From: a virus
Lineage: Duplodnaviria; Heunggongvirae; Uroviricota; Caudoviricetes
IMG/VR virus record: IMGVR_UViG_2695420699_000010
Direction: 5' to 3' (one strand)
Length of the DNA stretch: 4,033 nucleotides
Shown piece after piece: positions 1 through 4,033 of this stretch. The stretch's first letter is position 1; each line of letters starts with the position of its first letter. The translations under genes were made by a program, and so were the position numbers. Below the pieces are notes generated by a model. It did not search any database. It saw only the letters and a program-made list of their open reading frames with translations, and was not told the origin of the DNA.

Positions 1-168
1 CATGACAAAGTCATCGGGCATTATCTGAACATAAAACACTATCAATAAGTTGGAGTCATTACCGAGGCTATCTGCCTCAGGCATGAACACCAAAAGGCAG
101 ATAGAGAAAAGCCCCAGTTAACATTACGCGTCCTGCAAGACGCTTAACATTAATCTGAGGCCCAATCT

Positions 169-381
169 ATGTCTCACAAATGTAGGTTAGCCTCTTACGT
201 GCCGAAAGGCAAGGAGAAGCAGGCTATGAAGCAGCAAAAGGCGATGTTAATCGCCCTGATCGTCATCTGTTTAACCGTTATAGTGACGGCACTGGTAACG
301 AGGAAAGACCTCTGCGAGGTACGAATCCGAACCGGCCAGACGGAGGTCGCTGTCTTCACAGCTTACGAACCTGAGGAGTAA
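169..381 (+). CDS. mok-like in-frame N-terminal extension of the hok reading frame (70 codons); possible regulatory/coupling ORF
   Basis: ATG at 169 preceded by GAGG (157-160) with 8-nt spacing; same frame and same stop as the hok ORF. This mirrors the Mok/Hok arrangement as I recall it for chromosomal hok loci. Whether it is translated is not determinable from sequence. Confidence 0.4.
   Translation: MSHKCRLASYVPKGKEKQAMKQQKAMLIALIVICLTVIVTALVTRKDLCEVRIRTGQTEVAVFTAYEPEE
226..381 (+). CDS. hokD: Hok/Gef family type I toxin (small membrane-active peptide, 51 aa), HokD/RelF-like
   Basis: ATG 226 with AAGGAG (212-217) 8 nt upstream; TAA stop 379-381. Product MKQQKAMLIALIVICLTVIVTALVTRKDLCEVRIRTGQTEVAVFTAYEPEE has the Hok signature: hydrophobic N-terminal helix followed by the conserved TRKxLCEV.R...EVAxF.AYE core. 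Symbol assigned from recalled similarity to E. coli HokD/RelF, not from a search. Confidence 0.85.
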   Translation: MKQQKAMLIALIVICLTVIVTALVTRKDLCEVRIRTGQTEVAVFTAYEPEE

Positions 382-828: not shown

Positions 829-1878
829 GTGCGGGTATTACTTCGACCTGTTCTGGTGCCGGAACTCGGTCTGGTTATCGTTAAGCCAGGCCGTGAATCA
901 ATGTCAGCATTCCATAACGGCAGAATACTGGTGGAGCCGGAACCAAAAAGCATGCGCGGCCTGCCATCCGGAACCGTTCCTGCCGTTCGCCAGCCGCTGG
1001 CGGAAGACAAATCTCTGCTGCCATTTTTCAGCGACGAGCGGGTAATTCGTGCCGCTGGCGGTGCCGGTGCACTGTCTGACTGGTTATTGCGTCACGTTAA
1101 ATCCTGCCAGTGGCCTCATGGTGACTATCATCACAGTGAAATCGTCATACATCGTTACGGCACCGGCGCGATAGTGTTGTGCTGGCACTGTGACAACCAG
1201 CTGCGCGACCAGACATCAGAATCACTCGATCAACTTGCTCAGCAGAATCTGGTTGCCTGGATGATTGACGTCATCCGTCACGCAATAAGCGGTACGCAGG
1301 AGAGGGAGTTATCGCTGGCCGAATTATCCTGGTGGGCGGCCTGCAATCAGGTGGTGGATGCACTACCTGAGGCAGTAGCGCGTCGTTCGCTGGGATTACC
1401 AGCGGAAAAAATCCGCTCCGTATACCGTGAGAGTGACATCGTACCGGGAGAACAGACAGCCATCAGCATACTGAAGCAGCGCACAAAAAATATTGCGCTG
1501 CCACTTCACGTCCACCAGCAACAAAATCCATCACAGAAAAAAACGGTTGTCAGTATCGCCGTTGATCCGGAGTCTCCTGAATCGTTCATGAGGCGGCCTA
1601 AACGTCGCCGTTGGGTTAATGAGAAATACACGCGCTGGGTAAAGACACAGCCGTGTGCGTGTTGTGGTAAGCCAGCTGACGATCCGCATCACCTGATTGG
1701 TCATGGTCAGGGGGGGATGGGAACAAAGGCCCACGATATTTTCACGCTACCGTTGTGCCGGGAACATCACAACGAACTTCATGCTGACCCGCTGGAGTTT
1801 GAGAAAAAGTACGGCTCTCAGGTTGAGTTAATTTTTCGTTTTCTTGAGCACGCCTTTGCAACTGGCGTGCTCGGGTAA
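829..1878 (+). CDS. DUF968-like prophage protein (YdfU-like) with C-terminal Cys/His HNH-like zinc-binding motif, 349 aa
   Basis: Long uninterrupted ORF. GTG 829 with GGAGG (820-824) 4 nt upstream and overlapping the upstream stop (TAATGTG); alternative start ATG 901 (MSAFHNGR...). C-terminus QPCACCGKPADDPHHLIGHG...LPLCREHHNELH (nt ~1651-1790) is a CxCC...HH...C..HH pattern. Position between replication genes and rusA/Q is typical of nin-region genes in lambdoid phages. Confidence 0.85.
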   Translation: MRVLLRPVLVPELGLVIVKPGRESMSAFHNGRILVEPEPKSMRGLPSGTVPAVRQPLAEDKSLLPFFSDERVIRAAGGAGALSDWLLRHVKSCQWPHGDYHHSEIVIHRYGTGAIVLCWHCDNQLRDQTSESLDQLAQQNLVAWMIDVIRHAISGTQERELSLAELSWWAACNQVVDALPEAVARRSLGLPAEKIRSVYRESDIVPGEQTAISILKQRTKNIALPLHVHQQQNPSQKKTVVSIAVDPESPESFMRRPKRRRWVNEKYTRWVKTQPCACCGKPADDPHHLIGHGQGGMGTKAHDIFTLPLCREHHNELHADPLEFEKKYGSQVELIFRFLEHAFATGVLG

Positions 1879-1890
1879 AAGAGGTGACTG

Positions 1891-2250
1891 ATGCTCATAG
1901 ATTTGGTTTTACCTTACCCGCCGACGGTGAACACTTACTGGCGACGCCGTGGCAGCACATATTTTGTATCAAAAGCCGGGGAGCGTTATCGCCGGGCAGT
2001 GGCGCTTATTGTTCGCCAGCAGCGACTGAAATTAAGCCTGTCCGGACGGCTGGCAATAAAAATTATTGCAGAGCAACCGGATAAGCGCCGCCGTGACCTG
2101 AACAATATTCTGAAAGCACCGCTGGATGCGCTGACGCACGCGGGGTTGTTAATGGACGATGAGCAGTTTGATGAAATCAATATTGTACGTGGCAAGCCAG
2201 TATCTGGTGGACGGCTGGAGATAAAAATTACAGAGGTGGGGTGTGCATGA
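1891..2250 (+). CDS. rusA: Crossover junction endodeoxyribonuclease RusA (Holliday junction resolvase), 119 aa
   Basis: ATG 1891 with AAGAGG (1878-1883) upstream. Product carries the RusA hallmarks: N-terminal LPYPPTVNTYW, central PDKRRRDLNNILKAPLDALTHAGLLMDDEQ (catalytic Asp cluster), and C-terminal GGRLEIKITE. These parallel E. coli RusA (...[30 protein letters not shown]...GGRLELTITE) as recalled. Confidence 0.93.
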   Translation: MLIDLVLPYPPTVNTYWRRRGSTYFVSKAGERYRRAVALIVRQQRLKLSLSGRLAIKIIAEQPDKRRRDLNNILKAPLDALTHAGLLMDDEQFDEINIVRGKPVSGGRLEIKITEVGCA

Positions 2251-2936
2251 ATAACCAGTATTTACAGTTTGTTCGTGAGCAACTCATGATTGCCACTGCG
2301 GATCTCAGTGGGGCGACAAAAGGTCAACTGGAAGCCTGGCAGGAAAATGCCCTGTTCGATACAGGGCGTTACAGACGCAAAAAAATTCGTTACCGCGATG
2401 AGGTAACCGGAAAAATGATCACGCGGGATAATCCCCCAATCCCGGGTAAACAATCACTGGCGAAAGGCTCATCAATTGCCCTGGTCAGTCCTGTTGAGTT
2501 TGCAACATCATCGTGGCGGCGTACCCTTCTGGAACTGGAAGAACATCAGAAGGCGTGGTTGTTGTGGTGTTATGGCGGAAACATTTGCTGGGAGCATCAG
2601 ATCGCGATAATGCAGTGGGTGTGGAATGAATTTAAAACTCAGTCTGGTACCAGAAAAATTGCAGTGAAAACGCTGGAGCGTGTGAAGAAGTTGATCTGGC
2701 TGGCGGCACAGGATGTCAGAGGATGGGTTACCGGGTGTGAGGTCTACCAGAGACAGGAGCTTGCCAGACTGTGTGGAGTTAAGCCTGATAACTGGAGCCA
2801 TAATTATGCGAACTACTGGCGTGAGATGTGCGATATTTTTAAGCGCCTCGATAGAGAATCCTTGATTTGCTCCGTGAAAATAAGAGCGCAACAAAAAGCG
2901 ACCTTTTCACGACGAGATATTGCAAAAGTCAATTAA
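2247..2936 (+). CDS. Putative late-gene antitermination protein Q (lambdoid Q-type), 229 aa
   Basis: ORF immediately after rusA; ATG 2247 overlaps the rusA stop (ATGA), with GAGGTG (2234-2239) upstream; alternative GTG 2241. Followed within 90 bp by a promoter-like element and a strong intrinsic terminator, the canonical Q / pR' / tR' layout. Assignment is mainly by synteny and size; I could not confirm the Q family by motif. Confidence 0.72.
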   Translation: MNNQYLQFVREQLMIATADLSGATKGQLEAWQENALFDTGRYRRKKIRYRDEVTGKMITRDNPPIPGKQSLAKGSSIALVSPVEFATSSWRRTLLELEEHQKAWLLWCYGGNICWEHQIAIMQWVWNEFKTQSGTRKIAVKTLERVKKLIWLAAQDVRGWVTGCEVYQRQELARLCGVKPDNWSHNYANYWREMCDIFKRLDRESLICSVKIRAQQKATFSRRDIAKVN

Positions 2937-2948
2937 ATCGCGTATGTT
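2920..2948 (+). promoter_or_regulatory. Candidate late promoter (pR'-like) overlapping the 3' end of the Q gene
   Basis: TTGCAA (2920-2925), 17-bp spacer, TATGTT (2943-2948); predicted start near 2955. A second -10-like TATAAA sits at 2952-2957. Sequence-only prediction. Confidence 0.3.
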
Positions 2949-2997
2949 TCGTATAAATCTGATATTTTGCCTATTTTGTACGCGATGGCAAAGTAAG

Positions 2998-3025
2998 AAA
3001 AAAACTGCCGCCAGGCGGTTTTTTT
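2998..3025 (+). terminator. Strong intrinsic terminator (tR'-like) downstream of Q
   Basis: A7 (2998-3004), stem CCGC (3008-3011) / loop CAG / GCGG (3015-3018) with flanking G-T closure, then T7 (3019-3025). The A-run/T-run symmetry makes it potentially bidirectional. Confidence 0.7.
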
Positions 3026-3071
3026 ATGTCCGAAAATCGCGTCAGTACAGTAAACGCGCTGGCGGCGGTGA

Positions 3072-3366
3072 ATACCGGTCTTTCAGCTTGCTGGCTTTTT
3101 CGACAAGAGTTATTGGTGTGTCACGTTAACCGGAAAAAGGAAAGTTTGAGAAACGCGATCTGGCACAGGCGGTTATTAATGCTGCCTACCTGGTGGCCTG
3201 TGCAGATGGTGAATGTGAGGCTTCCTAGAAATCGAAGATCGAACAGGTACTGCGTAATCAGCCTGCGCTGTCCGCGTTTACGTCAGAAATAATTGAGCCG
3301 GAAGAGCGCAAGGTGCTGGAAGAGATTGCCGGTGTTCTGGGTCTTCGTCTGGAGAATCACCTGTGA
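3072..3366 (+). pseudogene. Decayed TerB-like (tellurite-resistance TerB domain) gene: frameshifted, with an in-frame amber stop
   Basis: One frame gives ...AGFFDKS... (3072-3149). The next frame gives GKFEKRDLAQAVINAAYLVACADGECEAS, then TAG (3226-3228), then KSKIEQVLRNQPALSAFTSEIIEPEERKVLEEIAGVLGLRLENHL, stop 3364-3366. The FFDK start, the hydrophobic-A-x-ADG-x-x-x-x-E core and the C-terminal acidic-E..IA..LG pattern resemble TerB as I recall it. No single intact frame exists. Confidence 0.4.
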
Positions 3367-3494
3367 CGGTAAAACTGCGCCTGACTGTGGCTGCACTCCT
3401 GCTGTTTCTGGTGGTGATGGTGGATTTCACCAGCAGAATCATGTCGGTGCTGGCGGATGGGGTGCTGGTCTGCGGCATTGTGGTATTGCTGTAG
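3363..3494 (+). CDS. Hypothetical 43-aa hydrophobic (membrane) peptide, GTG start overlapping the upstream stop
   Basis: GTG 3363 overlaps TGA 3364-3366 (GTGA); GGAG (3351-3354) 8 nt upstream; stop TAG 3492-3494. Product VTVKLRLTVAALLLFLVVMVDFTSRIMSVLADGVLVCGIVVLL is almost entirely hydrophobic, consistent with one or two transmembrane helices. It is absent from the supplied ORF track, most likely because of its short length. Confidence 0.35.
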   Translation: MTVKLRLTVAALLLFLVVMVDFTSRIMSVLADGVLVCGIVVLL

Positions 3495-3711
3495 CCGGTG
3501 ATAAAAAGAAACAGCCTGCATAATGCTTGATTTTTTTATTTGCTGTTTATTAAAAACACTTCTGCATGGTGAATCCCCCTGTGCGGAGGGGCGACTGGTG
3601 TAGGTAGCATTTATTATGTTATAGGCAAGCCGACGCGGGTTCAGTGACACCGGCTGAATTCACCGGGAGGCACCCGGCACCATGCAAGAAAAAGAATGTG
3701 CATGCAAACAT

Positions 3712-3736
3712 GCCCCTCTCCGGAGGGGCTTTTTTT
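3712..3736 (+). terminator. Intrinsic terminator (+ strand)
   Basis: GCCCCTC (3712-3718) / loop TCCG / GAGGGGC (3723-3729), a perfect 7-bp GC-rich stem, followed by T7 (3730-3736). Confidence 0.65.
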
Positions 3737-3742
3737 ATGGGT

Positions 3743-3768
3743 AAAAAATGCCCGAATGGGTTCGGGCA
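3743..3768 (-). terminator. Intrinsic terminator (minus strand), convergent with the + terminator at 3712-3736
   Basis: On the + strand: A6 (3743-3748) then a perfect 8-bp stem TGCCCGAA (3749-3756) / loop TGGG / TTCGGGCA (3761-3768). On the minus strand this reads hairpin followed by UUUUUU. Confidence 0.5.
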
Positions 3769-3803
3769 ATAGCATGAGATACTGATATTGTTGTGTTGTT
3801 ATC
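3743..3803 (-). ncRNA. Candidate small RNA (~60 nt) on the minus strand, antisense to the late-region leader
   Basis: Minus-strand promoter-like element: -35 TTGCGC (+ coordinates 3834-3839), 18-bp spacer, -10 TAAAAT (+ 3810-3815). Predicted transcript AUAACAACACAACAAUAUCAGUAUCUCAUGCU is A/C-rich and unstructured, then ends at the minus-strand terminator hairpin plus U6 (3743-3768). Purely predicted. Confidence 0.25.
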
Positions 3804-3829
3804 GTGTGGATTTTAACCAGGGTTTATCA

Positions 3830-3856
3830 GGCTGCGCAACTGCGTGGCCTTTTTTC
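3830..3856 (+). terminator. Possible intrinsic terminator (+ strand)
   Basis: Stem GGCTGCGC (3830-3837) / loop AACT / GCGTGGCC (3842-3849), 8 bp including two G-U pairs, followed by TTTTTT (3850-3855). Overlaps the proposed minus-strand -35. Confidence 0.45.
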
Positions 3857-3864
3857 ATTTCTTG

Positions 3865-3907
3865 GGCTGTAGTCCCCGAGTGTCATTCAGGCTTCCGGAC
3901 TACAGCC
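3865..3907. repeat. Perfect 11-bp inverted repeat with 21-nt spacer in the leader of the downstream late gene
   Basis: GGCTGTAGTCC (3865-3875) and GGACTACAGCC (3897-3907) are exact reverse complements. No U-tract on either side, so it is not a terminator; candidate protein-binding site or RNA processing/translation-control stem. Confidence 0.6.
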
Positions 3908-3955
3908 AGCCCACTCCATATCTGATTTAATACACTATCCCGGCCGGGAGGAATA

Positions 3956-4033
3956 ATGACATTTAAACATTATGATGTTGTCAGGGCGGCGTCGCCGTCA
4001 GACCTTGCGGAAAAGCTGACACACAAACTGAAA
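3956..4033 (+). CDS. 5' end of a late-region gene (small conserved phage protein, possibly DUF1737-like); truncated by the window edge
   Basis: ATG 3956 with GGGAGG (3946-3951) 4 nt upstream; open to the end of the window. Product begins MTFKHYDVVRAASPSDLAEKLTHKLK. The family assignment is a recollection, not a search result. Confidence 0.55.
   Translation, partial: MTFKHYDVVRAASPSDLAEKLTHKLK

Follow-up and report, generated by a model that had tools for sequence, protein, structure and literature searches.

The small RNA AgvB (EcOnc01) is known from the work of Tree et al. (2014) on E. coli O157:H7 Sakai, where it is the most abundant previously unannotated sRNA crosslinked to Hfq, with the highest Hfq CRAC signal among the unannotated sRNAs, and where it is encoded in two copies, in the prophages Sp10 and Sp17 (PMC4104026). 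The Sp10 copy (EcOnc01a, AgvB1) lies on the minus strand, yields an RNA of 60 nt on Northern blots and is destabilised in an hfq deletion (PMC4104026 Table S2). A review places AgvB in prophage Sp5 instead (PMC12197685); according to Table S2 of PMC4104026 and the Sakai sequence checked here, AgvB resides in Sp10 and Sp17, and Sp5 carries AsxR, not AgvB.

The function of AgvB was established by reporter, binding and competition experiments. AgvB lifts the repression that GcvB exerts on a dppA-GFP fusion, this relief is abolished by a 4 nt seed mutation, and compensatory changes (the G1 mutations) restore it; furthermore, AgvB and GcvB form a stable duplex in EMSA, and AgvB and the dppA mRNA contest the distal face of Hfq (PMC4104026). 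In vivo, RNase E CLASH yielded 82 unique hybrids of AgvB with GcvB (PMC5286369), and in vitro, Hfq speeds the annealing of the two RNAs about 20-fold (bioRxiv 10.1101/2021.04.25.441314). Deletion of both agvB copies lowers DppA translation by 32%, a modest effect size in the native host, and makes the strain less competitive in bovine terminal rectal mucus, a loss that is not seen in LB or MEM-HEPES (PMC4104026). In the mechanism shown for AgvB in the literature, the single-stranded 5' module copies CACAACA, the consensus target site of the G/U-rich R1 seed of GcvB. As an Hfq-binding anti-sRNA, or sponge, AgvB thereby blocks the core sRNA GcvB, the mRNAs of amino acid and peptide transporters, for example dppA, are derepressed, and the relief from GcvB lets O157:H7 grow better in bovine terminal rectal mucus.

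Several described RNAs resemble AgvB in part. AsxR (EcOnc02; RF02703), an sRNA that is directed against FnrS and encoded by the Stx2 phage Sp5, shares with AgvB the promoter, the CGAT start, the scaffold with its terminator and the convergent placement within the moron region, but its 5' module, UUAUUAAAACGA, targets the terminator loop of FnrS and lacks CACAACA. EcOnc03 of Sakai Sp9, an uncharacterised paralogue, likewise corresponds to AgvB in promoter, scaffold and context; its 5' module, AAAAAUGACAAUGCAA, also lacks CACAACA. SroC, a GcvB sponge derived from the gltIJKL mRNA, is similar to AgvB in that it is Hfq-dependent, base-pairs with GcvB and relieves the repression of the regulon. Unlike AgvB, however, it is encoded in the core genome, is processed from an mRNA and is unrelated in sequence, and it reportedly triggers the decay of GcvB. 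In contrast, AgvB blocks the seed, and the levels of GcvB are not appreciably lowered (PMC4104026).

The agvB gene of the window

The window, that is, the whole stretch of 4,033 nt of viral DNA analysed here, had been proposed in a preliminary description to encode, on its minus strand, an sRNA of about 60 nt that would be transcribed from its own promoter. Judged by its sequence, the predicted RNA is an exact copy of AgvB, and its prediction is thus the rediscovery of an already known element. In a search with all Rfam families, RF02702 (AgvB, "Anti GcvB sRNA") matched the minus strand from 3804 to 3743 with 96.5 bits, compared with a gathering score of 56. The match spans model positions 1 to 62 of 62, all 62 bases are equal to the consensus, and the E-value of 1.2e-18 rules out a chance match. 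The AsxR model reached 43 bits on the window, which is below its gathering score of 63. The two Sakai copies, agvB1 of Sp10 and agvB2 of Sp17, also score 96.5 bits each, and the AgvB gene of the window is identical to both of them (EcOnc01a/b), including the promoter and the flanks within 3743–3960. In Sp10, the 62-mer is located at 1941920–1941981 on the minus strand of NC_002695.2, and the agvB1 locus is 100% identical to window positions 3743–3960. The published Northern probe for EcOnc01 matches the window exactly at 3766–3798. The 60 nt RNA detected in Sakai (PMC4104026), on an identical sequence, agrees with the predicted size and the predicted independent transcription. It is almost certain that positions 3743–3839 of the minus strand constitute a complete agvB gene, with a sigma-70-type promoter, a primary transcript of about 60 nt and an intrinsic terminator, which encodes an Hfq-binding anti-GcvB sRNA. 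From its sequence, we infer that this copy would be expressed and would act likewise in its own host. The features of the gene and of its surroundings are compiled in Table 1. The only open reading frames over the locus (3641–3775 minus, 3644–3772 plus and 3788–3925 plus) were rejected as genes because their reading frames run through the terminators.

Table 1. Coordinates of the agvB gene, its elements and the neighbouring features in the window
Feature	Position	Strand	Basis and remarks
hok/mok/sok toxin-antitoxin module	53–381	+	sok match at 53–231, RF01794, 84 bits
Hok ORF	226–381	+	PF01848; within 70-aa mok-type ORF 169–381
DUF968	829–1878		Domain match
RusA	1891–2250		
Q antiterminator	2247–2936		PF06323, E = 1e-82; 229 aa
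tR'-like, pR'-proximal intrinsic terminator	3007–3019 + T7 tract (to 3025)	+	Terminator scan; strong
DUF3927	3363–3494		
STnc100-type sRNA (PasD-related)	3538–3742	+	RF02076, 154.1 bits (gathering score 47)
AgvB sRNA gene	3743–3804	−	Rfam RF02702; 62 nt in the model, ~60 nt on published Northern blots
Intrinsic terminator	3743–3768	−	8-bp hairpin 3768–3749 and U6 tail 3748–3743; terminator scan, fold, inverted-repeat finder
Small internal hairpin (nt 22–34), start of conserved 3' scaffold	3771–3783	−	MFE and centroid structure; Rfam consensus structure
A/C-rich segment, AACAACACAACAA	3800–3788	−	Sequence reading
GcvB-pairing seed (AgvB nt 3–16), AUAACAACACAACA	3789–3802	−	RNAduplex; motif named in PMC4104026
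−10 element TAAAAT	3815–3810	−	Sequence reading; invariant across paralogue loci
Promoter spacer, 18 nt	3833–3816	−	Sequence reading
−35 element TTGCGC, agvB promoter	3839–3834	−	Sequence reading; invariant in AgvB, AsxR, EcOnc03 and L105-type loci
Putative terminator-like hairpin + T6 tract	3829–3856	+	Terminator scan and plus-strand fold; function inferred
DUF1737/SASA sialate-esterase gene, start	3956	+	Domain match; preceded by 5' UTR after agvB

The two promoter elements and their spacing are present as had been proposed. The −35 element agrees with the consensus at three of six positions and the −10 element at five of six, with a spacer of 18 bp, and the promoter is absent from the output of the promoter scan because its −35 element matches at only three positions. 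The consensus cannot establish this promoter, and therefore the conservation among paralogues and the published 5' end were used instead. The −10 element ends 6 nt before C3804, with which the Rfam AgvB model begins, and primary 5' ends have been mapped in Sakai by TAP-dependent RLM-RACE on a sequence identical to that of the window (PMC4104026). As an assignment from sequence, the promoter is supported by its position, by its conservation and by the published mapping of an identical sequence, not by its consensus score.

At the other end of the gene, the AAAAAA at 3743–3748 of the plus strand provides the U-tail of the minus-strand transcript, and the adjacent hairpin at 3749–3768, TGCCCGAA-TGGG-TTCGGGCA, consists of a perfect 8-bp stem and a 4 nt loop. 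Both the terminator scan and the inverted-repeat finder pick up this hairpin, which lies at the coordinates that had been predicted for a minus-strand terminator. Altogether, six terminator-like sites are found in the region 2900–4033, the agvB hairpin on the minus strand being one of them, compared with 1.1 ± 1.1 in shuffled sequences.

In the predicted fold of the 62 nt RNA, nt 1–21 are unpaired and are followed by a 5-bp hairpin (nt 22–34), the terminator (nt 37–56) and the U6 tail, which corresponds to the anticipated order of an unstructured A/C-rich 5' segment, a terminator hairpin and a U-tail. The minimum free energy is −13.7 kcal/mol (z = −3.75), and none of 200 shuffled sequences folds as well. 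The predicted fold of AgvB agrees with enzymatic probing (bioRxiv 10.1101/2021.04.25.441314). The conserved 3' scaffold of about 42 nt, which closes with the Rho-independent terminator and the U-tail, is present in the window; the AgvB copies are nearly identical and would therefore carry no covariation signal.

Motifs like the Hfq-binding ARN repeats to which the segment had been likened are present in relaxed form. The triplets AAC-AAU-AUC-AGU (AgvB nt 13–24) contain one mismatch in four and fit the relaxed ARN4m1 definition, and together with the preceding CAC they form five triplets with two mismatches, which fits ARN5m2. In the A/C-rich stretch for which the resemblance had been pointed out, only two of the four triplets are strict A-R-N. 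For AgvB itself, the Hfq CRAC signal, the ARN4m1/ARN5m2 motifs and the destabilisation in an hfq deletion have been reported (PMC4104026). Reading of the raw sequence alone recovered the strand, the borders, the promoter, the size and the Hfq motif of agvB, but it missed the mimicry of GcvB targets. This result carries little weight as a discovery: the characterisation of AgvB goes back to 2014, and Rfam lists the RNA as a separate family.

The pairing with GcvB was analysed with RNAduplex, using the GcvB sequence of MG1655. Nucleotides 3–16 of AgvB form 14 contiguous pairs with nt 72–85 of GcvB, which lie within the R1 seed; the motif CACAACA occupies nt 10–16 of AgvB (window 3795–3789), inside the A/C-rich stretch. 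The interaction of the AgvB 5' region with GcvB has an energy of −19.4 kcal/mol, and the net gain upon cofolding is about −16 kcal/mol. In a mononucleotide-shuffle control of the A/C-rich 5' end, 17 of 1,000 shuffles paired with GcvB at least equally well, but this control is not stringent, because R1 is a G/U repeat with which any A/C-rich string pairs. It was therefore replaced by a comparison with the natural 5' modules of the paralogues, for which energies of −5.0 kcal/mol (AsxR), −10.9 kcal/mol (EcOnc03) and −4.7 kcal/mol (L105 type) were obtained. The combination of CACAACA and R1 pairing also separates AgvB from EcOnc03, which barely reaches the gathering score of the AgvB model (56.6 versus 56) and pairs more weakly with GcvB.

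Paralogous loci and distribution in E. coli

IMG/VR was scanned with a terminator-anchored and a promoter-anchored search, which yielded 109 and 149 usable loci, respectively. The 117 nt segment of the window is the commonest variant and occurs in 65 of the IMG/VR loci. Among the loci, four types of 5' modules share one upstream sequence. The transcribed modules are CGATAACAACACAACAATATCA in AgvB, CGATTATTAAAACGA in AsxR, CGATAAAAATGACAATGCAA in EcOnc03 and CGATTATAAAAATGTA in the L105 type, a single case in which this module was seen once on the AgvB/AsxR promoter and scaffold. Common to all four types, and invariant, are the −35 element TTGCGC, the 18 nt spacing, the −10 element TAAAAT and the CGAT with which the transcribed part begins. 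After CGAT, the next 14 to 18 nt vary, and then the alignment is conserved again throughout the 3' scaffold.

The 116 nt comprising the promoter and the gene are present with at least 99% identity in 621 complete-genome records of E. coli, and an agvB match was found in 652 of 5,426 complete E. coli genomes. The serotypes with copies of at least 99% identity are O157:H7, O55:H7, O145, O121, O111 and O103. In all 30 records listed, out of 654 with a match, there is no annotated feature under the AgvB match, and therefore annotation-based screens would flag the locus as empty intergenic DNA.

The window corresponds to the complete contig CYEQ01000077.1 of the draft assembly GCA_001283285.1, which was identified by an exact match of the RusA protein. 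No contiguous match to the whole window was found in the complete E. coli genomes or in the phage records. Compared with the window, its relatives carry either about 2 kb of extra DNA or an insertion of the IS3 family: in the closest complete genomes, the additional 2 kb, with a DNA methyltransferase gene and ileZ/arg tRNAs, are located at the equivalent of 3028–3366, and in one IMG/VR locus (L062), an IS3-family element has inserted at a site that corresponds to window position ~3158.

A scan of the GTDB species-representative genomes for the terminator pattern gave one match, of the AsxR type, on an 888-bp contig labelled Xanthomonas pisi DSM 18956 (NZ_JPLE01000080.1; locus L003). Since this AsxR-type sRNA comes with the E. 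coli prophage promoter, the contig most likely represents a contamination of the Xanthomonas pisi assembly with DNA of E. coli or of an Stx phage. The scan is uninformative on the spread outside E. coli, because its one E. coli representative gave no match.

Prophage context and the convergent sRNA

The agvB gene of the window is part of a lambdoid prophage and occupies its moron region, downstream of Q and pR' and upstream of the sialate-esterase and lysis genes. The same arrangement, with a moron site and convergent sRNA pairs, was described by Tree et al. (PMC4104026). Like the window, Sakai Sp10 and Sp17 contain a convergent STnc100-type partner and a downstream esterase gene. The Q alleles differ, with a protein of 229 aa (PF06323) in the window and an antiterminator of 184 aa in Sp10. 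In addition, the window lacks the ileZ/argO tRNAs of these Sakai prophages, and its TerB gene is decayed.

Between the stop codon of Q (2936) and the pR'-proximal terminator, there is a short plus-strand leader (2946–3027) with weak, sub-threshold matches to isrK and AgrB. By analogy with the lambda 6S RNA or StxS, this leader probably corresponds to a pR'-tR' short transcript. The moron region that follows (3028–3366, plus strand) is decayed: its TerB-like frame is broken by an in-frame TAG at 3226–3228, and the TerB remnant remains below the Pfam threshold (20.6 versus 24.4 bits). Decayed tRNAs were considered for the G+C-rich structured stretch at 3560–3690 and rejected, since the tRNA search of the window found no tRNA genes; the stretch is therefore regarded as a part of the STnc100-type RNA. 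Downstream of agvB, the 5' UTR of the esterase gene contains a perfect 11-bp inverted repeat on the plus strand (3865–3875 and 3897–3907, with a 21 nt loop); in Sakai Sp17, 4 nt are missing from the 3' arm of this repeat.

The STnc100-type sRNA has its own terminator (3712–3729, followed by a T7 tract) and stops 1 nt before the 3' end of AgvB; its T7 tract and the A6 tract of agvB are 4 nt apart. This back-to-back arrangement of an STnc100-type and an AgvB-type RNA recurs in Sakai Sp9, Sp10 and Sp17. The central segment of the STnc100-type RNA (about 3607–3660) differs from both Sakai copies, whereas the flanks are identical. The RNA is probably a homologue of EcOnc06, an Hfq-bound RNA of about 177 nt encoded in Sp17, the mapping of which is approximate because of an offset of about 130–150 nt between two versions of the Sakai record. 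STnc100 has been described as related to PasD, and Rfam matches to AgvB and AsxR were reported in the 10-kb flanks of PasC genes (preprint 10.64898/2026.05.13.724894). In the Sakai annotation, two hypothetical coding sequences run antisense across the STnc100-type region, namely ECs_1960 (3872–4390 of locus L115, minus strand) and ECs_3499 (880–1209 of locus L166, plus strand); both are probably annotation artefacts.

Action in trans and proposed action in cis

Two other readings of the minus-strand element were weighed. According to one of them, no independent RNA exists: two terminators placed back to back would insulate the late operon, the hairpin would be no more than the minus-strand side of this pair, and the resemblance to a promoter would be due to chance. 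The short distance between the T7 tract of the STnc100-type RNA and the A6 tract of agvB fits with such a pair, as does a promoter that deviates from the consensus and that the scan did not detect. However, the identical Sakai sequence gives rise to an abundant primary transcript of 60 nt, as detected by CRAC, RLM-RACE and Northern blotting (PMC4104026), the Rfam match extends beyond the hairpin over the full length of the RNA, and the promoter is conserved across the paralogues. This reading has next to no probability.

The other reading accepts the RNA but sees its main role in cis-antisense control, in which AgvB, by pairing or by head-on interference, would act on the Q-antiterminated late transcript from pR' and modulate the expression of the esterase and lysis genes. 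The underlying geometry, which the preliminary description had pointed out, is indeed present: AgvB is complementary to any late transcript derived from pR', 152–213 nt upstream of the start codon of the esterase gene. The agvB gene is on the strand opposite to Q, the pR'-proximal terminator and the esterase ORF (Table 1), and its convergent position is kept in all paralogues. Moreover, a terminator-like hairpin of the plus strand, with nine pairs including G-U, the loop AACT and a following TTTTTT, overlaps the −35 element of agvB and the A-tract upstream of it, and therefore late transcription and the initiation of agvB transcription compete for the same DNA. The hairpin is conserved in the AsxR, EcOnc03 and L105-type loci, but the sequences are too alike for this conservation to be decisive, and its T-tract, which on the minus strand is an A-tract just upstream of the −35 element, could also be a UP element. 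Several observations argue against a main role in cis. The overlap is far from the ribosome-binding site, and the published phenotypes are explained by the antagonism of GcvB, including the compensatory mutations (PMC4104026). Among the paralogues, the 5' modules vary and correspond to distinct host sRNAs (GcvB and FnrS), which indicates selection for trans targets. Furthermore, antisense regulation by AgvB is explicitly denied in a review (PMC12197685), and no report of a cis effect of AgvB on the late transcript was found in the literature searched. Cis-antisense control as the main role of AgvB thus appears very unlikely. The function that has been established for AgvB is the mimicry of GcvB targets in trans via CACAACA, rather than control of the late transcript as a cis-antisense RNA.

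It is a separate question whether AgvB, besides sponging GcvB, has a second role at the cis level, in the form of a reciprocal damping between agvB and the Q-antiterminated late transcription into the esterase and lysis genes. We regard such an additional role as unlikely, albeit less so than a main role in cis. Q-antiterminated late transcription could then shut off agvB, and, conversely, agvB transcription or pairing of its RNA could damp the read-through into the esterase and lysis genes. Since all four paralogue types share the arrangement of a promoter within a terminator, the cis-level role would belong to the anti-sRNA cassette as such, and, if true, it would couple a lysogenic programme of host manipulation by sRNAs to the lytic switch. 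As for its function in trans, the presence of AgvB marks the DNA as part of an EHEC/EPEC-type lambdoid prophage that would be able to retune the GcvB regulon of its host, and with it the uptake of amino acids and peptides.
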